From UHGV virus genome UHGV-1370141: 64,000 nt of DNA. One strand, written 5' to 3'. The DNA is from a virus. The notes under the pieces were generated by a model. It searched no databases and was not told the origin of the DNA. It worked only from the letters and a program-made list of their open reading frames with translations. How positions within the stretch are numbered: the first letter of the stretch is position 1; every line of letters starts with the position of its first letter. The position numbers and the translations under genes were made by a program. This document shows positions 1-38,550 of the stretch, one piece after another.

Positions 1-2
1 AA

Positions 3-419
3 CGTATTGGTGATAAACGCTGGTATGAGGATATAATTGCGTTACATAATCACATCTACCATTACGGTTTTCGCGAGATGTCGCTAGTTTTGGACAAAAA
101 CATGCCAAAACCGTTATCTCCCGATCACGTTATGAACTTTATTTACGGGTATTTTAGAATTCAGGAAAATATAGAAAGACTGAACTCGTCCAATCGAAGC
201 GAGTGCGCGTTTACGCTAAACGCGTTATTTGATGAACCCTGTAATACATGTAGTCGTTGTTTTCGTATCGAGTCTGACGGTGCCCAGAACCAAGTAAAAA
301 ATGTTGAAATCGTAACGCAGCATGGCTGTAGTGACTTGGCCAGAAAGGTTGGCTTAGAAGCTTACGATTATATACGACGAGTGGTAGGGGCTAAGAATAG
401 GATTCCAGCAAAATTGTGA
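3..419 (+). CDS. radical SAM enzyme paralog, C-terminal part (5' end lies before window start)
   Basis: Open frame from window start; translation RIGDKRWYEDIIALHNHIYHYGF...MPKPLSPDHVMNFIYGYFRIQENIERLN parallels C-terminus of the 2011..2949 radical SAM protein; Cys cluster CNTCSRC...C near end. Confidence 0.6.
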   Translation, partial: RIGDKRWYEDIIALHNHIYHYGFREMSLVLDKNMPKPLSPDHVMNFIYGYFRIQENIERLNSSNRSECAFTLNALFDEPCNTCSRCFRIESDGAQNQVKNVEIVTQHGCSDLARKVGLEAYDYIRRVVGAKNRIPAKL

Positions 420-480
420 TATTTTTACAGAGAATGAATTATAATGTGCCTTAGCTGGCACTGAACCAGTAGGTGTTAAA

Positions 481-879
481 ATGGCGATTGGTTTATCTTC
501 TTTAAAAGCGCGTTTGGATAATATAGATTCTTCCGCGCTAAAAAACACTGGAGCAGTACAGAACTATATTCGTGGAAAGGCTACGAATAATGTCGATCTA
601 TTTGGCGGCCAACCTAAAAACCATTACGACTGTGGCGGTAGCTGTAGCTGGACGTGCTCTAGTTGTTCTGGTGGTTGTACCGGTAATGCTTCAGGAGGTT
701 GTGGTTCCTCATGTTCAGCAAACTGTGTTTCTGGTTGTAGTTCTGGATGTTCAGGTTGCTCTAGTTCATGTTCTGGAGGCTGCACGGGGACATGTATAGG
801 CCAATGTACGACTACATGTACAGGTACATGTAGTCGTACCTGTCATGGTGGCTGTTCACAATCGTGTACGGGAAGATAA
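481..879 (+). CDS. Cys/Ser/Gly-rich small protein, putative RiPP precursor peptide A (132 aa)
   Basis: About 50-aa leader-like N-terminus then core with ~25 Cys in repeated C-S-x-x-C units; shares leader and HY(D/N)C(G/N)GGCSW(T/S)CS motif with the next ORF; sits beside radical SAM/SPASM genes. Confidence 0.55.
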   Translation: MAIGLSSLKARLDNIDSSALKNTGAVQNYIRGKATNNVDLFGGQPKNHYDCGGSCSWTCSSCSGGCTGNASGGCGSSCSANCVSGCSSGCSGCSSSCSGGCTGTCIGQCTTTCTGTCSRTCHGGCSQSCTGR

Positions 880-882
880 GAA

Positions 883-1092
883 ATGATAAGTCTTAAAAAC
901 ATACGCGACAGATTAGTAACGGCAGAAGGGTACATTACCACAGCAGGAGCAAACAACTATATTGCAAACCAAGGTACAGTGTCATCTACTAATAACCTTT
1001 CTGGTTTACCGTTGAGTCACTATAACTGTAACGGTGGGTGTAGCTGGTCCTGTAGCGGTAGTTGTAGCCGTGGTGCTGGCGGTAGTAAGTAG
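883..1092 (+). CDS. Cys-rich small protein, putative RiPP precursor peptide B (69 aa)
   Basis: Paralog of 481..879 (LSHYNCNGGCSWSCSGSCSRG); starts 4 nt after the previous stop. Confidence 0.5.
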   Translation: MISLKNIRDRLVTAEGYITTAGANNYIANQGTVSSTNNLSGLPLSHYNCNGGCSWSCSGSCSRGAGGSK

Positions 1093-1115
1093 TAGAAACG
1101 TGTCAGAGGTATTCA

Positions 1116-2003
1116 ATGAAAAACGATTTACATTTAGCATATAACACTACATTTAACCATCCTTTGCAAATCTCTTCTCCAGATTCTGTACGTTATCATT
1201 TAAGTGATGACGTTCGTTTAATTACCATGCTACCTGGCGAATGGCCGAAATTACGGGGCCGTGATATCGTCAACCGTGATAATATCTCCGTAGAAAATAC
1301 TTTTACAATTCGTGATCTGCCGGTCGAACGTGTGATTGTTTTTACAGGAGATGATGAACTTTATGGAATGATTGTTGATGGTAAATACTTCTTCAGTGAC
1401 GGGGTTTTAAATGCTGGTAGCGATTTAGAACTTTTTTTTACACCGTTTGCTGAGCTTGACGCTAAGCCTATGGTTCGCAGATGGTGGAGTCCAGATTACA
1501 TGGGGGCTTTTCCGTATTACTATACTCTTGTTGGTAAGGATGTTGAAGAGTATTCCGATAGTGAACCATACACCAACATTGAAGGTTATCAGGACCTCGG
1601 AATTGCACATTTAGCTGATTTAATGGCTTATAGCTATAAGTTCGAATGGATTCGTGAACGTTCTGTTTGGAAAGCCATTACTGACGACCATGTTATTACG
1701 AAACGTATTCGTAAACCATGGATGCAACATCTTGTTCAAATACGATTTGGCCAAAGTCCAGTAACCGAGGCTGATATTTCTAAACTTGTTAGTTTTTTAT
1801 TGTCTAAGGTTGAATTGACTGATGAAGAAGCCGAAGCTGTTAAGCCGATGCTTGATCGTATTGTGACCTTAGAAGACCTCAAAAGAATGAATAGTCGTTA
1901 TAACGATCTTAATCGGTTGCTAGAGGCGTATAATTCGACAAAGGTTTTAAAACCTGGAGTCAATTTCGACGAAGATCCGTTGTTCGCTATCGACTATAAT
2001 TAA
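1116..2003 (+). CDS. hypothetical protein (295 aa) within the radical SAM cluster
   Basis: Long ORF between precursor-like genes and radical SAM genes, same strand, tight spacing. Confidence 0.55.
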   Translation: MKNDLHLAYNTTFNHPLQISSPDSVRYHLSDDVRLITMLPGEWPKLRGRDIVNRDNISVENTFTIRDLPVERVIVFTGDDELYGMIVDGKYFFSDGVLNAGSDLELFFTPFAELDAKPMVRRWWSPDYMGAFPYYYTLVGKDVEEYSDSEPYTNIEGYQDLGIAHLADLMAYSYKFEWIRERSVWKAITDDHVITKRIRKPWMQHLVQIRFGQSPVTEADISKLVSFLLSKVELTDEEAEAVKPMLDRIVTLEDLKRMNSRYNDLNRLLEAYNSTKVLKPGVNFDEDPLFAIDYN

Positions 2004-2010
2004 ATAATTA

Positions 2011-2949
2011 ATGGAGTCACCTGCAATGGCGACCAATGCGGAACCAAAATTATCAGATCAGTTATTTGACAATCCAACAATATTAGCCGTTATTACTACA
2101 TCCAAATGTAATCTGGACTGTAGTTTCTGCGGCGGAGCCTATTACATGAATCGTGAAGATTCTTCTCGAGAGTTTCAACGTGACCGAATTATGGAGGCGT
2201 TAGAAGCTAACCCAACAATCACCGAGATTCAATGGACGGGTGGTGAGCCTTTGTTAGCCACTCGTAAAATTGAGGCGTTTGTTGACGAGTTAAAAGTAAT
2301 TCGTCCAGAGCTCAAACATCAGTTATATACCAACGGTTTAAAGATGCGTAAAACGCATCTCCCGTTGTTAAAACAATTTGATAATGTGTATGTTAGCATC
2401 GACGGGTTTGAGTTGTCTGAACGCCCTTTTAAGCGTTTTATTAACGATGGTTGCTACGAAGCTTTAGAAGTAATGCATGAGCTTGAAAATGTTCATACAT
2501 GGGCCGTTTTAACTCGAGAACAGTTGGGTAACAAACGGTGGCATGAAGACATTATTGAGCTTCATAATGCGATCTATCACTACGGTTATCGTACCATGAC
2601 GTTGCTGTTAGACGCGAATATGCCAAAACCGTTATCTCCCGATCACGTTATGAACTTTATTTACGGGTATTTTAGAATTCAGGAAAATATAGAAAGACTG
2701 AATGTTTCCAACTCGAAAAGGTGTGACTATGTCGTAAGCAAAGTTTTTGATGGTGGGTGTAACGTATGCAGCAATAGTTTATGGTTAAGAGCAGATGGAA
2801 CCGAATATCAGTTGCAAAATGCCCCGAGATTATTAGAATCGGGATGTAACCAATTAGCTTGTTCCATCGGGTTAGAAGCCTACGAGTATATTCGACGAGT
2901 GGTTATGGCCAACCGTAATAGTGGAGTATTAAATGAACCAAGAAAATAA
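2011..2949 (+). CDS. radical SAM enzyme (312 aa) with C-terminal auxiliary Cys cluster
   Basis: CxxxCxxC motif (TTSKCNLDCSFCGG) near N-terminus; C-terminal cysteines CDYVVSKVFDGGCNVCS...GCNQLAC. Confidence 0.8.
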   Translation: MESPAMATNAEPKLSDQLFDNPTILAVITTSKCNLDCSFCGGAYYMNREDSSREFQRDRIMEALEANPTITEIQWTGGEPLLATRKIEAFVDELKVIRPELKHQLYTNGLKMRKTHLPLLKQFDNVYVSIDGFELSERPFKRFINDGCYEALEVMHELENVHTWAVLTREQLGNKRWHEDIIELHNAIYHYGYRTMTLLLDANMPKPLSPDHVMNFIYGYFRIQENIERLNVSNSKRCDYVVSKVFDGGCNVCSNSLWLRADGTEYQLQNAPRLLESGCNQLACSIGLEAYEYIRRVVMANRNSGVLNEPRK

Positions 2950-4255
2950 TTACCCGAAACAGTTGACTTACCAGATTGTTACAAACTTGTCGTGTAATTT
3001 GGACTGTGAGTATTGTTACGAGCGTAAATATCCCCGCAATAACAAAGCAGCAGATATTGTAGATTTTCTTCATGCCTGTTTCGAGCGTGATAAAGATTTA
3101 CCAAACGTAGAAGTCGTCATTGACATTATCGGCGGCGAGCCGTTTATGCAGCCTAAGCTTCTAATGGCCGCTTTCGAAACAGCCGAGCAGTTGTGTGAAG
3201 AACATAAACGCCCGTTTATGTTTAGTATCTCTACTAATGGGACATTATTAGATAGGCCGTTGAACAGGGAAATTATTGAACGTTGGAAGGACAGACTTTC
3301 TATCGGGGTGTCTATTGATGGGTTACCTGAGTCGCACGATAAGTACCGTATTTTTACAACGAGTCGCGAAGGTTCTTACGAGGCCGCTGTACGTGGTTAC
3401 AATTATCTAAAAGAAGTAGGTATCGCGGAGCTTGGGGTTAAAGCGACATTTACTTTGGAAACGCTCCCACATTATGCGGCGGGTATGAAATCCCTAATCG
3501 ATTTGGCTGGAGGTGGAACCATTTCTGGTAACGTAACCTTCGAAGACATTATGCCACGGAGTATGGCTACGTCGATAGCGCTACAAATGATGGATGTAGT
3601 CGATTATTGGGTTGAAAAGGGTTTACACACCAACCCACGTAATACCCTATCACATATCATCCCGGAAGGGTTAGATTTCGACACTATCTGGGAACCGAAC
3701 TGGCGGGATCAGCTACTTTACAACGATACTGTACGTTTAAACCCGGAACGCTTGCGTCCGTTCTGCGGGACATTAACTCACATGACTTGTTTAGGGTTTG
3801 ACAGGAAGATTTTCGGTTGTAACCGTTTCATGTCGACTGTAACGTCACGTTCTGCGGTATTTGAGTTAGTCGGTCGTGAGTTTGTTAGCTTAGACGGTGG
3901 GAAACTGCTGGAAGAGATTCAGACGCAATACACCAACTATCCTGAGACGTGCTTAGGTTGTCCGATGAAACACGCTTGTGGTAGCTGTGCAGCAGCTTCC
4001 TACGAGAATGGGGAAGGGACGTTAGAAGACCGTAAAGCGTATCACGCTGAACGTCGTCAATGTGGTTGGACAACTGCAAAATTAATGGTCGCGGAATACT
4101 GGAAACAGAAGATGGGTACAACATCTGTGAAGGATTTCCACGATAATAGCATGTGTTACTGCCCTCGCTGTGTACGTGAACGTGCCCAAAAAGAAAAACA
4201 ATTGAGAGAAGCCAAAGATGAAGCCAATTCTGATCCACAATATTACGAAGCGTAA
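2933..4255 (+). CDS. radical SAM / SPASM-domain enzyme (440 aa), anSME-like maturase
   Basis: CNLDCEYC radical SAM motif; GGEP motif; C-terminal CLGCPMKHACGSC SPASM-type cluster; overlaps previous gene by 17 nt. Confidence 0.85.
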   Translation: MNQENNYPKQLTYQIVTNLSCNLDCEYCYERKYPRNNKAADIVDFLHACFERDKDLPNVEVVIDIIGGEPFMQPKLLMAAFETAEQLCEEHKRPFMFSISTNGTLLDRPLNREIIERWKDRLSIGVSIDGLPESHDKYRIFTTSREGSYEAAVRGYNYLKEVGIAELGVKATFTLETLPHYAAGMKSLIDLAGGGTISGNVTFEDIMPRSMATSIALQMMDVVDYWVEKGLHTNPRNTLSHIIPEGLDFDTIWEPNWRDQLLYNDTVRLNPERLRPFCGTLTHMTCLGFDRKIFGCNRFMSTVTSRSAVFELVGREFVSLDGGKLLEEIQTQYTNYPETCLGCPMKHACGSCAAASYENGEGTLEDRKAYHAERRQCGWTTAKLMVAEYWKQKMGTTSVKDFHDNSMCYCPRCVRERAQKEKQLREAKDEANSDPQYYEA

Positions 4256-6786: not shown

Positions 6787-7266
6787 ATGCTAAAACGCAT
6801 TCTCGTGGTCGTTGCTTTTGTAATGACGTTGGCAGGTTGTGCTATTCAGCCGAACGCAGAAGGTCAGTTCTCCACCGTACCTGTTGACCAACATGATATG
6901 GTCATTTACACCTGTACAGGTGCTTCTCAAGAATTCGTCGATTTTAAACCGGTACCGTCTAGCCTAAAACTGATGCCCCTTTCGGTGTTAGTCATGGATA
7001 CAGGGGCGAATTGGGTCGCTACATGGGACGAAGGTAAAATCGAATCTCCGCAACTTTATAAAGACCTGTTAGGTAAGGTGGACGGTAACTTAAACGTTGT
7101 TACCGGTGAGCGCTATTACCGTGTAAACGGGTTACTGTCAAAAACTCCAACGTTTGCGTATTCTACCATCAACTACAAAACAGGTGAAGGTAAAGGTGTA
7201 ACGTTCTTCAGATGTCACGAAGGTAGCATTCCGGATACCGGCACTATGCTGCACCCGGTAGAATAA
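6787..7266 (+). CDS. putative lipoprotein (159 aa)
   Basis: N-terminal signal peptide ending in lipobox LAGC; lone plus-strand gene in minus-strand block; own terminator. Confidence 0.6.
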   Translation: MLKRILVVVAFVMTLAGCAIQPNAEGQFSTVPVDQHDMVIYTCTGASQEFVDFKPVPSSLKLMPLSVLVMDTGANWVATWDEGKIESPQLYKDLLGKVDGNLNVVTGERYYRVNGLLSKTPTFAYSTINYKTGEGKGVTFFRCHEGSIPDTGTMLHPVE

Positions 7267-7270
7267 TAAA

Positions 7271-7306
7271 TACCCTCCTGCTTAGCAGGAGGGTAGGTTT
7301 ATTTTG
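7271..7306 (+). terminator. rho-independent terminator
   Basis: Inverted repeat accctcctgc / gcaggagggt followed by tttatttt. Confidence 0.7.
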
Positions 7307-7386
7307 TCCGTAGAACGCGCTAGAACGCGTTCTAAGACGGTTTATACAAAATAAGGTACAATCATCCTAAGTTTCGGTTTACGCGC

Positions 7387-7902
7387 TTAGATTTTAACTA
7401 AGGCGCTCCAATCGATAGGGCTTTGTTTCACGACTTTCGCAGTACCGCGATTCGGTGACCAGAACGTGATATTCGGTTGGTTACGAACGTCGATATGCAA
7501 CCAACTGATGTCGCATTCGATAAAGTGAATAAACGGAAACTCATCAGGATTAGCGGCAATATAATCGTGGACTTGTTTTACCGTTGAATCTAACAGTGTC
7601 GCGTCGAACGCATTACCGAACTTGTGCTGACTCCCTGAATCGGAATAGAGTTGTAACGCACGTTGTTTATAGTTACCGCCCTTAGGCTTTTCTTGATTGA
7701 TGAAAAAGTCTAAGGTTCTTAGGCCACGCTGTTGCGCAGCAGACGAGTTAATCACCATTCTGCCGAAACGGTTACGAATCTGTTGCAGCGAAATCATTAA
7801 CAACGGGTTCATAAACCGAATTGCAGAATCACCGTATTTGGCGATGTACGATTGCGGTACTAACTCTTTGAGTTTAAAGTTACTCGGATTTGGATGAAAC
7901 AT
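7387..7902 (-). CDS. peptidase M15-like cell wall hydrolase (171 aa)
   Basis: SQHKFGNAFD (SxHxxGxAxD) zinc-binding motif and later WLHID histidine, typical of M15/VanY-type peptidases. Confidence 0.5.
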   Translation of the reverse strand: MFHPNPSNFKLKELVPQSYIAKYGDSAIRFMNPLLMISLQQIRNRFGRMVINSSAAQQRGLRTLDFFINQEKPKGGNYKQRALQLYSDSGSQHKFGNAFDATLLDSTVKQVHDYIAANPDEFPFIHFIECDISWLHIDVRNQPNITFWSPNRGTAKVVKQSPIDWSALVKI

Positions 7903-8554
7903 CTTCCCTCCCAGACAGAAAAGCCCGTTTGATGTTCAGGTATTTGACATTAACGGGACAACCTGTGGTGATATCAACACGTTCGTGGTCAGGAATAGCA
8001 GGCTCCTTAAACTCACGAACGAACAAATAGTTTCGATTGTAATCTAACGTACGGTAATCGTTAGTGGTATAAGACGGCTTCGCGTTAGGGTCTACGTAAG
8101 CATCCCAACCGAACCCCGCCACGGCTTTATAAAACGTTTGGCAGATATACGGTGAGATTTCCAACGACTGCATAATACGCAGGAATGTTAAGTCAGAGAA
8201 CTCTTTATCGATAATACGCGAAACGTTACCACCCGGTGTCATGGGATAGCTACGCTCCGTGTTACATTTTTGATAGAGTAAGTCGTGAATGCAGGCCGCA
8301 GGTGCCCACGGTCCGTCAGGATGGAAAATTCCCTGGAGGTGTTCAGGAATTGACGCTAAATCGGTAACGAACCCTTTCGGTGCTGTTAACCACAGTTGCG
8401 TGTCAGGCAATACACCCGTTAAATAAACCGCACGGTCTAAGTGTACGTGGTCGTGATAAATCTCACGTAACGTAAACGGATAATGGTAATCCTCCGTTAA
8501 TACAAACCACTTATTGTCTAAACGTTTATATTGAAGCTTCTCCATTACCCACAC
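7880..8554 (-). CDS. hypothetical protein (224 aa)
   Basis: ORF. Confidence 0.5.
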   Translation of the reverse strand: MWVMEKLQYKRLDNKWFVLTEDYHYPFTLREIYHDHVHLDRAVYLTGVLPDTQLWLTAPKGFVTDLASIPEHLQGIFHPDGPWAPAACIHDLLYQKCNTERSYPMTPGGNVSRIIDKEFSDLTFLRIMQSLEISPYICQTFYKAVAGFGWDAYVDPNAKPSYTTNDYRTLDYNRNYLFVREFKEPAIPDHERVDITTGCPVNVKYLNIKRAFLSGREDVSSKSE

Positions 8555-9808: not shown

Positions 9809-10657
9809 TTAATCTAAGAATCCCGGTAAGACCGGATTAGTCTGCGCTAATTCAATCTTCGACTTCGGACGATCGGTGCCGTTAAAGTGGATTAACAGAT
9901 TACCGGTCAGGTTAGAACACAGCGGGCTGAGCGTCAGCACCAACACACGCGTGAACTTCGTATTTGCGCCTTCGTAACCTGCGGTTGGACCATCGTAAAT
10001 AATCTTCGCACCATACAGGTTGTTAGCCGCGTTCTTAGGTACACTTACCCATTTCTCATCAACGACGTTAGCCAGTTTAGTGGCTAACTCAGCCAGGTCG
10101 ACGGTGTCGTTGATAGTAATCGGGTCAAGGTAATCTTTTTCTGCGGTGAAATCAATCGGGTGAGAATAAACCGCAGCGTTACCTTTCTTAGTAGACGGAT
10201 ACTCTACCAGATTCTCTAATTGAGTAACTGGTAACAGTTCAGTCAGGTCAATAGGATCACGCAGCGTAAGTGTTACTACACCGCACCACTCGTAAGATTT
10301 CTCGTTAGCGGTAAGCTGATGGGTTTCACCTTCAACTTTTGCGTCAACGATATCCGAGGGTAAAATATTTAGGTTGTATTTTGCGTTAATCGCATTAAGC
10401 AAATCCGATGCGGTTACCACACTGTCGTTACCGAACACCAACTCACCGGTTAGGTAGTCAGGTAAATTACGACGGTGGTAAGTCACGGTTAAAGTAGTAG
10501 ACTCATCGCCTTTGAGTTTAGAGGTCAGAACCACCTGGGTATCAACCCCAGTACCGGTAGGTTCTCCGATATCAACATCACTGAAAGTCAACGGTGGACT
10601 AATATTGTTTTCAGTGTTGATGAGTTTTAGCAGTTTCTGTTTTGACGTAAGAGACAT
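9809..10657 (-). CDS. hypothetical protein (282 aa)
   Basis: ORF. Confidence 0.5.
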   Translation of the reverse strand: MSLTSKQKLLKLINTENNISPPLTFSDVDIGEPTGTGVDTQVVLTSKLKGDESTTLTVTYHRRNLPDYLTGELVFGNDSVVTASDLLNAINAKYNLNILPSDIVDAKVEGETHQLTANEKSYEWCGVVTLTLRDPIDLTELLPVTQLENLVEYPSTKKGNAAVYSHPIDFTAEKDYLDPITINDTVDLAELATKLANVVDEKWVSVPKNAANNLYGAKIIYDGPTAGYEGANTKFTRVLVLTLSPLCSNLTGNLLIHFNGTDRPKSKIELAQTNPVLPGFLD

Positions 10658-13974: not shown

Positions 13975-14025
13975 GGTATATGCTCCTAAAATGGTTTTAG
14001 TTAAGTGAGAGCTTTCGTACTCTCA

Positions 14026-14050
14026 CCTAAGTAATATATATCTGAAAATA
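14026..14050 (-). promoter_or_regulatory. conserved promoter-like motif (copy 1) with adjacent hairpin
   Basis: Minus-strand TCAGATATATATTACTTAGG, one of three near-identical copies; followed by hairpin 14005..14026; upstream of gene 13480..13974. Confidence 0.5.
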
Positions 14051-14056
14051 TTTTAA

Positions 14057-14395
14057 TTAAAACCCAGCAATAAAACTGCCTAATGAAAGACGCTGTAAGT
14101 ATTTTGGCTTACGTGCCAGGTAACAGTTCTTAGGATTACCTATCGCCATCTGTGCAACCGCACGTTCTAAACGCGGTGCTTCTAAGATAGCACGATAGTT
14201 CCCTTCGTAATGCATTAACCATGCACACTCTTCAACAAAACGTTTTGCTTCTCGGTATTCTAACGTACGAATACGTTTCTTACCACGATACAAAACCACA
14301 TCACCATTACTACGAAATACAACCGTTTCACGATTCATTGATTTTACCCCATAATTCTCGCCGTAAAACTTGTTTATACATATCGACCTGAGCAC
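14057..14395 (-). CDS. hypothetical protein (112 aa)
   Basis: ORF. Confidence 0.45.
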   Translation of the reverse strand: MLRSICINKFYGENYGVKSMNRETVVFRSNGDVVLYRGKKRIRTLEYREAKRFVEECAWLMHYEGNYRAILEAPRLERAVAQMAIGNPKNCYLARKPKYLQRLSLGSFIAGF

Positions 14396-17497: not shown

Positions 17498-17568
17498 AAT
17501 TGTCCTTCCTTCTTAATGTACTCTTCAACTCAGCTATAACTAGTGGAGTGAACGTAATTTTCACTCTC

Positions 17569-17597
17569 CCCTAGGTAATATATATCTGAGAAAAAAT
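17569..17597 (-). promoter_or_regulatory. conserved promoter-like motif (copy 2) with adjacent hairpin
   Basis: Minus-strand CTCAGATATATATTACCTAGG; hairpin gagtgaa/ttcactc at 17546..17566; upstream of 17054..17497. Confidence 0.5.
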
Positions 17598-17603
17598 AAA
17601 AAA

Positions 17604-17630
17604 GGTAGTAGGGGCTAAGCCCCTACTACC
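17604..17630 (-). terminator. stem-loop terminator
   Basis: Inverted repeat ggtagtagggg / cccctactacc with ctaa loop, downstream of gene 17637..18257. Confidence 0.6.
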
Positions 17631-33094: not shown

Positions 33095-33121
33095 CACACA
33101 CCTCGAAGAAAAATAAAAGTA

Positions 33122-33145
33122 CCCTCTCTCCAAACGGAGAGAGGG
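33122..33145 (-). terminator. stem-loop terminator (identical copy at 33909..33932)
   Basis: ccctctctcc aaac ggagagaggg perfect inverted repeat. Confidence 0.6.
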
Positions 33146-33152
33146 GCACTGC

Positions 33153-33422: not shown

Positions 33423-33523
33423 TTTAGATTACTCCATTTAGTTAAGTGAGAATTCTCACATAGATGAAATATATCTTAAATTTTTTAGACCGTTAACAAC
33501 ACAATGCTGAAGCCATATCGAAA

Positions 33524-33856: not shown

Positions 33857-33908
33857 TTAATTTTGTTTACTTGTGCATAACTACGGCTATACGCGTAAAA
33901 TAAATACA

Positions 33909-33932
33909 CCCTCTCTCCAAACGGAGAGAGGG
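33909..33932 (-). terminator. stem-loop terminator (second copy)
   Basis: 28 nt identical to 33121..33148. Confidence 0.6.
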
Positions 33933-33937
33933 GCAGC

Positions 33938-38439: not shown

Positions 38440-38493
38440 GGTAATTAATCCTAATCTGTAGAACAAGTCGTAAAAGAGATTACGATGTAATCT

Positions 38494-38523
38494 CACTAAG
38501 GTAATATATATCTGAGAAAAAAT
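38494..38523 (-). promoter_or_regulatory. conserved promoter-like motif (copy 3) with adjacent hairpin
   Basis: Minus-strand CTCAGATATATATTACCTTAGTG; hairpin gagattac/gtaatctc 38476..38494; upstream of HTH gene. Confidence 0.5.
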
Positions 38524-38530
38524 TAAATAA

Positions 38531-38550
38531 CCCCTACCCGAAGGTAGGGG
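38531..38550 (-). terminator. stem-loop terminator
   Basis: cccctacc cgaa ggtagggg downstream of kinase gene. Confidence 0.6.

Follow-up and report, generated by a model that had tools for sequence, protein, structure and literature searches.

Islands of perfect identity between two diverged radical-SAM paralogues of an SPN3US-like jumbo phage, and their probable origin in recurrent gene conversion

The 64,000-nucleotide (nt) stretch of viral DNA analysed here (UHGV virus genome UHGV-1370141, hereafter the window) derives from an SPN3US-like jumbo phage and opens with the 3' part of one gene for a small radical S-adenosylmethionine (rSAM) enzyme, designated rSAM-A, followed at some distance by the whole of another, rSAM-B. 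The two genes are clearly diverged along most of their length, yet they share one segment of 83 nt without a single mismatch. How did so confined a stretch of two otherwise dissimilar genes come to be perfectly identical? We consider it very probable that the segment is a gene-conversion tract between two old small-rSAM paralogues, produced by recurrent, short-tract concerted evolution. The genes and the two copies of the segment are situated in the window as follows:

1..419, + strand: 3' part of rSAM-A (last 138 codons and stop), an open reading frame (ORF) that is open from the window edge
2026..2949, + strand: rSAM-B, the ancestral small radical-SAM gene, encoding 307 amino acids (aa), with a PF04055 match and a CxxxCxxC motif
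102..184, + strand: identity island 3, copy in rSAM-A, an exact 83-nt match to 2620-2702
2620..2702, + strand: identity island 3, copy in rSAM-B, the exact match, encoding residues 199-226

A maximal exact-match search demonstrated that positions 102-184 equal positions 2620-2702 over 83 nt, and that the run is not extendable on either side; across the 64 kb of the window there is no other long direct repeat besides this pair (family D1). Each copy encodes MPKPLSPDHVMNFIYGYFRIQENIERL and runs on for two bases into an Asn codon, which is completed as AAC in one copy and as AAT in the other to give a total of 28 identical residues, and the peptide read from either set of coordinates is MPKPLSPDHVMNFIYGYFRIQENIERLN. 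In codon alignments of the window's A and B sequences, the 5' flank of the tract was 65.7% identical at the nucleotide level and 66.7% at the amino acid level, with corresponding values of 51.7% and 37.7% for the 3' flank. The preliminary description of this DNA had reported both the perfect identity and the clear divergence of the flanking coding sequence, and both were confirmed. Its reference to tandem copies, however, needs amending, as two precursor genes and a gene for a 295-aa protein separate rSAM-A from rSAM-B.

The first 495 nt of rSAM-A fall upstream of the window start. A 40-mer from the window start had no exact match in IMG/VR, nor was the 312-aa ORF on record there, and the DNA upstream was represented by two relatives, the IMG/VR contig L003 (96% nucleotide identity), which extends 8 kb further upstream than the window, and L016 (93%; ENA sample ERZ27275844). 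In L003 the full rSAM-A spans 303 aa (7494-8405), with window position 1 corresponding to L003 position 7987. Tests of chance were conducted on the complete A/B pair of L003. Across 20,000 shuffles of its sites the longest exact run was 37 nt, and 41 nt in shuffles that respected codon position, against 84 nt observed. Within the tract, 26 of 26 degenerate codons were identical between A and B (P = 8e-8); outside it, just 53% of the codons for identical residues were. Elsewhere in A and B, other conserved motifs differed at the nucleotide level, with seven differences in GGEPLLA, five in TWAVLTRE and three in YIRRVV. Since other conserved motifs differ at many synonymous sites, protein conservation alone does not entail nucleotide identity. 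Chance is excluded as the source of the 83-84-nt run, which has no codon-level explanation.

A protein search with rSAM-A located numerous contigs of 222-230 kb with an A-type gene; the A-type protein cluster comprises 25 variants, spread over dozens of contigs of roughly 225 kb, and a Shigella flexneri assembly also encodes the A protein. The genomes carrying both A and B were divided into two lineages, lineage 1 comprising the window, L003 and L016, and lineage 2 comprising twelve genomes (L009, L010 and L021-L030). Their comparison revealed that the 83-nt tract is the third of three islands of exact A/B identity, of about 60, 47 and 84 nt, the remainder of the genes being about 57-63% identical. 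The rSAM-A partners of the first two islands lie upstream of the window, in which their B copies alone are visible:

2089..2148, + strand: identity island 1, B copy, covering the cluster-binding CxxxCxxC motif VITTSKCNLDCSFCGGAYYM; a 60-nt A/B run in L003 and L016
2326..2372, + strand: identity island 2, B copy, LYTNGLKMRKTHLPLLK; 47 nt in L003, 24+20 nt in L016 and 38 nt in lineage 2

In L003 the islands occupy gene columns 64-123 (60 nt), 301-347 (47 nt) and 595-678 (84 nt), and the next-longest exact A/B run outside them is 11 nt. Island lengths were 60, 24+20 and 84 nt in L016, 51, 38 and 95 nt in both L009 and L010, and 54, 38 and 84 nt in eight of the ten genomes L021-L030, with island 1 shortened to 41 nt in L025 and island 2 measuring 41 nt in L027. 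Lineage 2b carries three substitutions at the 3' edge of B's island 3. Apart from the three islands, A and B are saturated at synonymous sites. Each island falls on one of the three longest peptide motifs conserved in the two proteins, namely the CxxxCxxC loop, YTNGLKMRK.HLPLLK and MPKPLSPDHVMNF...ERLN. The splitting of island 2 in L016 (24 + 20) is due to a change of AAA to TTT at 10325-10327 (rSAM-B columns 325-327), replacing Lys by Phe in RKTHL; this may be an unusual multi-nucleotide substitution or else an error of assembly.

Wherever an island site varies between genomes, the A and B copies of one genome always agree. At columns 303, 309, 312 and 336 of island 2, both copies of L003 read C, T, C and A, and both copies of L016 read T, C, T and C; the window's B has the L016 state at all four. 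Column 660 of island 3 is A in both copies in lineage 1 and G in both copies in all 12 lineage-2 genomes, and column 99 of island 1 is T/T in lineage 1 versus C/C in lineage 2. A non-synonymous change in a Thr/Ser codon, from RKTHL to RKSHL, is also common to both copies. Such co-variation within genomes is the signature of repeated gene conversion, and some conversion is younger than the divergence of genomes with 93-96% identity. The earlier proposal of gene conversion or recombination between the rSAM paralogues is hence strongly supported: the synonymous sites covered vary freely in orthologues, the pattern recurs in all relatives with both copies, and the island variants match within each genome.

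The direction of transfer can be followed in part. Lineage-2 B has the A-type states DKN and YYMHRED, and at these positions all B orthologues from genomes without an A copy have DA. and N or D. Between the two lineages A is 90% identical at the nucleotide level and B 75% overall; despite this, B retains an exact run of 65 nt between lineages within island 3, which fits its overwriting from the better-conserved A. Conversion ran at least partly from A to B, a direction demonstrated solely for the lineage-2 extensions.

As a mechanism, we propose that during phage replication or recombination a strand of one copy would pair with the still-similar stretch of the other, and that the paired stretch would be copied or repaired across a few dozen bases. 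Flanks that are 35-50% diverged would block the spread of the patch, and longer patches would give rise to chimeric enzymes, which selection would remove. Each conversion would restore perfect identity and render the next one easier, such that the islands would stay in place. Within this scheme, we infer the enzymology of the exchange and the cause of the shortness of its tracts. Several points weigh against gene conversion as set out here. Islands 1 and 2 of the window are deduced from relatives that are 93-96% identical to it, and the perfect identity rests on consensus assemblies, in which an assembler could have smoothed away a single real mismatch. The long identical peptides could partly result from conversion, in which case the coincidence of islands and motifs would be partly circular. 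Lastly, the direction in lineage 1 is left undecided by comparison with L004, a genome that lacks rSAM-A, as the tract is 82% and the window's B overall 77% identical to L004's B.

The alternative that survives best is prompted by a set of recombinant-looking contigs. Five of them, from five samples (L013 and L017-L020), carry P1 (the precursor gene preceding rSAM-A), then an A::B fusion, then the larger rSAM gene rSAM-C, and the fusion is the product expected of a crossover in island 3 that deletes the precursor genes P2 and P3 together with the 295-aa gene. L015 reads from the end of the 295-aa gene into B::A and then P2, whilst L014 contains an A gene in which the segment between islands 1 and 3 is swapped for that of B (an A-B-A mosaic). 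The breakpoints are all inside islands 1 or 3. The samples behind the fusion and mosaic contigs are ERZ28564663, ERZ28644798, ERZ28645661, ERZ28649361, ERZ28647436, ERZ28641892 and ERZ27236844. The contigs measure 1.3-8.4 kb and have no private mutations, and different complete wild-type genomes within one and the same study match their arms at 100% identity; the left arm of L017, for instance, equals L029, and that of L019 equals L027. Descent of the A::B fusions from a single clonal deletion was considered and rejected, given that seemingly private single-nucleotide polymorphisms were present in wild-type lineage-2b genomes and that the arms match different wild-type haplotypes exactly. The chimeric contigs are either recurrent real recombinants or mis-joins via a collapsed repeat, and we lean slightly to mis-joins. 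The sequences have entered public collections as protein clusters P0002, P0051, P0003 and P0004 (contigs L013-L015 and L017-L020); if mis-joins, these are database contaminants that mimic domain-swapped enzymes.

Two propositions can be built on these contigs. One holds that in natural populations the islands serve as preferred crossovers, by which the two maturases repeatedly exchange their catalytic core and their C-terminal domain, probably the one that faces the substrate; a 2.5-3 kb cassette (P2, P3 and the 295-aa gene) would be deleted or duplicated by these crossovers, and the chimeric contigs of seven metagenome samples would be real and recurrent on different haplotype backgrounds. 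We regard this as doubtful, if worth entertaining. The other, which we judge somewhat less probable again, is that the islands are mainly points of reciprocal crossover (deletion, duplication, domain swaps) kept because shuffling is useful, as opposed to by-products of neutral conversion. The five A::B fusions, the single B::A contig and the A-B-A contig, all broken in islands 1 or 3, are what it would predict, but the shortness of every chimeric contig and the derivation of its arms from different wild-type genomes without private mutations are as expected of low-coverage mis-joins, and the data give no evidence of any benefit.

A much less likely account is that selection acts on the nucleotides as such and thereby preserves the identity of the stretch, by virtue of an RNA structure, a regulatory site, or a protein-binding or packaging signal needed in both genes. 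The tract shows one difference in its 84 nt between lineages, against the 90% and 75% overall identity of A and B, which could be taken as such constraint; B's conservation between lineages is nonetheless accounted for by overwriting from the better-conserved A. B orthologues from genomes without A are 76-82% identical to the tract and differ from it at 15-20 of 84 positions, mostly synonymously. An RNA element in the tract was rejected because its predicted fold (minimum free energy of -10.3 kcal/mol) was weaker than those of shuffled sequences (z = +1.55), and no promoter- or terminator-like site was found in the tract, the counts matching those of shuffles. Furthermore, three islands of different sequence show like behaviour.

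We give still less credence to an assembly artefact, in which a near-repeat was collapsed or cross-copied by the assembler, or the window is a chimeric join. Assemblers do struggle at this locus: repeats of 83-95 nt exceed common k-mer sizes, the near-complete contigs L011, L012 and L030 (225-230 kb) end inside B's island 3, and the short chimeric contigs pass through the tract. However, lineage-consistent islands were found in more than 15 independent long contigs across samples, sources and assemblers, including the window, an IMG/VR contig, an NCBI assembly and ENA contigs of about 225 kb, with contig names (k141_, NODE_, scaffold_) in the styles of MEGAHIT and SPAdes. The start of the Logan unitig L002 (k=31 graph, run SRR32320471) lies exactly 30 nt (k-1) short of the point after island 3 at which A and B diverge, and its end exactly 30 nt past their convergence at island 1. 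The raw-read graph therefore branches exactly at the island edges, making collapse or chimerism in the window very unlikely. Judging from their positions, the four co-varying sites of island 2 also lie so near the diverged flank that they would not give a poppable bubble at usual k. The many independent assemblies and the end points of the read-graph unitig together answer the worry about mis-assembly raised in the preliminary description.

Just as improbable is that the duplication was recent and the islands are what it left unaltered, the rest of the gene diverging very fast by diversifying selection or targeted hypermutation; although the most diverged part of A and B, the C-terminal domain (38% aa identity), could be specificity-determining, synonymous sites outside the islands are saturated (53% codon identity), A is too well conserved between lineages (90%) for hypermutation to be ongoing, A outside the tract resembles the B of its own genome (56.4% aa) no more closely than that of L004 (58.2%), and the co-variation of island sites within genomes needs later copying events.

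The gene that provides B with a partner for conversion, rSAM-A, sits between P1 and P2, 2.5 kb upstream of rSAM-B. In L004, L005 and Erwinia phage pEa_SNUABM_29, P1 directly abuts P2, so that rSAM-A is absent there, and rSAM-B orthologues were found at the same position in these three genomes and in SPN3US. All 62 GenBank phage records matched, SPN3US included, possess one B-type copy each. From this single copy and the abutment of P1 and P2 it follows that rSAM-A is a clade-specific extra copy; rSAM-B is the ancestral one. Outside the tract, rSAM-A and rSAM-B are 56% identical at the amino acid level and 63% at the nucleotide level, and rSAM-A is at most 55.8% identical in amino acids to any GenBank phage protein. 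On these comparisons rSAM-A is an old paralogue and not a fresh duplicate; it may have originated as an old duplicate or have been acquired from another phage. The spacer following rSAM-A had no significant match elsewhere in the locus, and no flanking repeats or homology that would explain the insertion of rSAM-A were found there.

Upstream of rSAM-A, L003 encodes the precursor P1 (130 aa), preceded by tail-fibre-like genes of 401 and 1727 aa. The suggestion that the cluster consists of iterated modules extending upstream of the window thus fares only weakly: a single additional precursor gene (P1) does lie there, together with the remainder of rSAM-A, but beyond P1 only tail-fibre-like genes follow, and no further rSAM or precursor module was found in L003 or L016. 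The N-terminus of lineage-2 rSAM-B is closer to the B of L004 than to that of the window, which suggests that recombination between phages may have occurred in this region.

The position of the tract in the protein was considered with an AlphaFold2 model of rSAM-B (predicted local distance difference test score, pLDDT, of 83), in which the last core strand (E190-195) precedes a helix (H205-229). Tract residues 199-226 are predicted to form the loop and long helix that come next after this strand, immediately ahead of the C-terminal Cys-bearing domain. Within the tract of rSAM-B, the family shows no variation at residues D206, N210 and G214 and next to none at M199, K201, P202, L203, F211 and Y213. 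Also invariant are C245, C248 and C274 of the C-terminal domain, the part of the protein most diverged between A and B, and C28, C32 and C35 of the CxxxCxxC motif. The nearest solved folds to the model were those of the peptide-modifying rSAM enzymes SuiB and CteB, followed by DesII, anSME and viperin. The rSAM-A fragment within the window is devoid of the CxxxCxxC motif, the corresponding region lying upstream, and the full-length A-type cluster representative P0001 has precomputed Pfam domains PF04055 and PF13353. The ORF list places the start of rSAM-B at 2011; the ATG at 2026 is preceded by GGAG, and relatives also start there.

The remaining genes of the cluster in the window are the following:

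481..879, + strand: P2, a 132-aa precursor-like protein with a leader-like N-terminus and a CxxxC-rich repeat tail; PHROG 6085, E = 8e-39
883..1092, + strand: P3, a 69-aa precursor-like protein with a single CSWSCSGSCS motif; PHROG 6085, E = 1.5e-24
1116..2003, + strand: conserved 295-aa protein between the precursors and rSAM-B; PHROG 8030, E = 6e-136
2933..4255, + strand: rSAM-C, a 440-aa radical-SAM enzyme, outside the identity islands; PF04055, 56 bits

These genes belong to a cluster resembling those for ribosomally synthesised and post-translationally modified peptides, which is kept across SPN3US-like jumbo phages (window 481-4255; L003 7077-12242; L001 7098-11291) directly 3' of tail-fibre-like genes. 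It comprises three Cys-rich CxxxC-repeat proteins, the 295-aa protein (PHROG 8030), a small rSAM and a larger rSAM, and the Cys-rich proteins have a common CGG.CSW.CS motif (PHROG 6085, function unknown). The closest GenBank record was that of pEa_SNUABM_29 (genus Seoulvirus), with approximately 72% nucleotide identity across the cluster. Both rSAM-B (52.8 bits) and rSAM-C (56 bits) score above the PF04055 cut-off of 29.5. The top NCBIfam match of rSAM-C was TIGR04115, the CXXX-repeat-target peptide maturase family, at 119.8 bits, far below the cut-off of 350, and it scored 113 bits against the PapB family; rSAM-C is related to the TIGR04115 family but cannot be called a member of it. Against TIGR04114 (Cys-rich repeat target), P2 and P3 scored 17.6 and 11.5 bits, respectively, both under the cut-off of 20. 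Neither had a match in Pfam-A at E values up to 10, whilst the gene table of the contig lists a 'faint' precomputed PF27846 match. The 295-aa protein had no match in Pfam or NCBIfam profile searches. A search of the literature on radical-SAM genes of SPN3US and jumbo phages, CXXX repeats, and gene conversion between phage paralogues returned nothing specific to this system.

Several additional features of these genomes were observed. In pEa_SNUABM_29 (L001; GenBank MW812339), long Cys-rich precursor genes at 7098-7490 and 7500-7901 (+ strand) are unannotated, and the record instead calls opposite-strand coding sequences at 7196-7408 and 7643-7915 (- strand) as hypothetical proteins, likely a mis-annotation caused by repetitive GC-rich codons. 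The 62-nt spacer between rSAM-A and P2 contains a hairpin at 446-461 of the window (GTGCC-TTAGCT-GGCAC), with a TATAAT-like box just 5' of it; the same site in lineage 2 reads GTGTCC-TAGG-GGACAC, the stem being kept via changes on both sides, and the hairpin may be a transcript-processing or stability element. The stretch between P3 and the 295-aa gene is also longer in lineage 2, by about 450 bp that hold one more ORF (about 11600-12042 in L009; also in L010 and L021-L030); this ORF is absent from the window and L003, and gene callers split it variably by genome. Further along the window, the intergenic motif TCTCACCTAAGTAATATATATCTGAGAAAA occurs in four copies (14017-14060, 17561-17604, 33450-33493 and 38487-38530) and is probably a phage promoter family, and GC-rich, terminator-like hairpins with A/T runs after or before them were noted, for example at 33110-33148, 33897-33935 and 38518-38550. 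Between L017 (1120-3346) and L009 (4735-6986), genomes that are otherwise 90-99% identical, the 1727-aa tail-fibre-like gene has a middle section that is replaced or has diverged strongly, in keeping with the usual mosaicism of receptor-binding genes.

The tufA and tufB genes of Salmonella and E. coli are the textbook case of interlocus gene conversion with concerted evolution. As in conversion of the tufA/tufB type, the phage paralogues of one genome swap short patches by homologous recombination, remaining identical within and changing between genomes, and as direct repeats they also permit deletion of the intervening DNA. Unlike tufA and tufB, they are otherwise very diverged (about 56% aa identity), their homogenisation is limited to three islands of 40-95 nt at catalytic or structural motifs and does not extend over the whole gene, and the setting is a lytic jumbo-phage genome. 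The mechanism is a standard one, and this case is a new, well-supported instance of a known process.

Within the phages, the window's rSAM-B and rSAM-C are orthologous to the 'putative radical SAM superfamily proteins 1 and 2' of SPN3US and their orthologues in Seoulvirus and related jumbo phages of Erwinia, Salmonella, Escherichia, Cronobacter and Proteus, with B about 64% identical in amino acids. The gene order of precursors, 295-aa gene, B, C, a 190-aa gene and a DUF4376 gene is common to the SPN3US group and the window. The SPN3US group has a single B-type copy; the clade of the window adds rSAM-A between P1 and P2, and conversion islands are possible only there. The cluster also resembles the CXXX-repeat systems (maturase TIGR04115; targets TIGR04114 and TIGR04117) in that C-x-x-x-C repeat proteins adjoin a radical-SAM enzyme. 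It differs from them in scoring below their cut-offs for both enzyme and target, as given above, and in being phage-encoded, beside tail-fibre-like genes, with one or two small rSAM enzymes and the 295-aa protein in addition.

The islands have practical consequences for work on this phage clade. The repeat breaks or misroutes metagenome assemblies, with contigs ending there and chimeric rSAM genes entering protein databases, and the islands distort phylogenetic analyses of these rSAM genes or estimates of their ratio of non-synonymous to synonymous substitution (dN/dS). As a direct repeat, the sequence also predicts a specific deletion of 2.5-3 kb that fuses the two enzymes. The more unusual biology, given here as context only, is that of the surrounding cluster, in which phage Cys-rich peptides are accompanied by two or three radical-SAM enzymes and tail-fibre neighbours. 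The islands themselves constitute a clean, well-replicated natural case in which two strongly diverged paralogues of a lytic jumbo phage evolve in concert over short tracts, and they indicate that an island of only 40-95 nt is long enough for homologous exchange to act on in these genomes.

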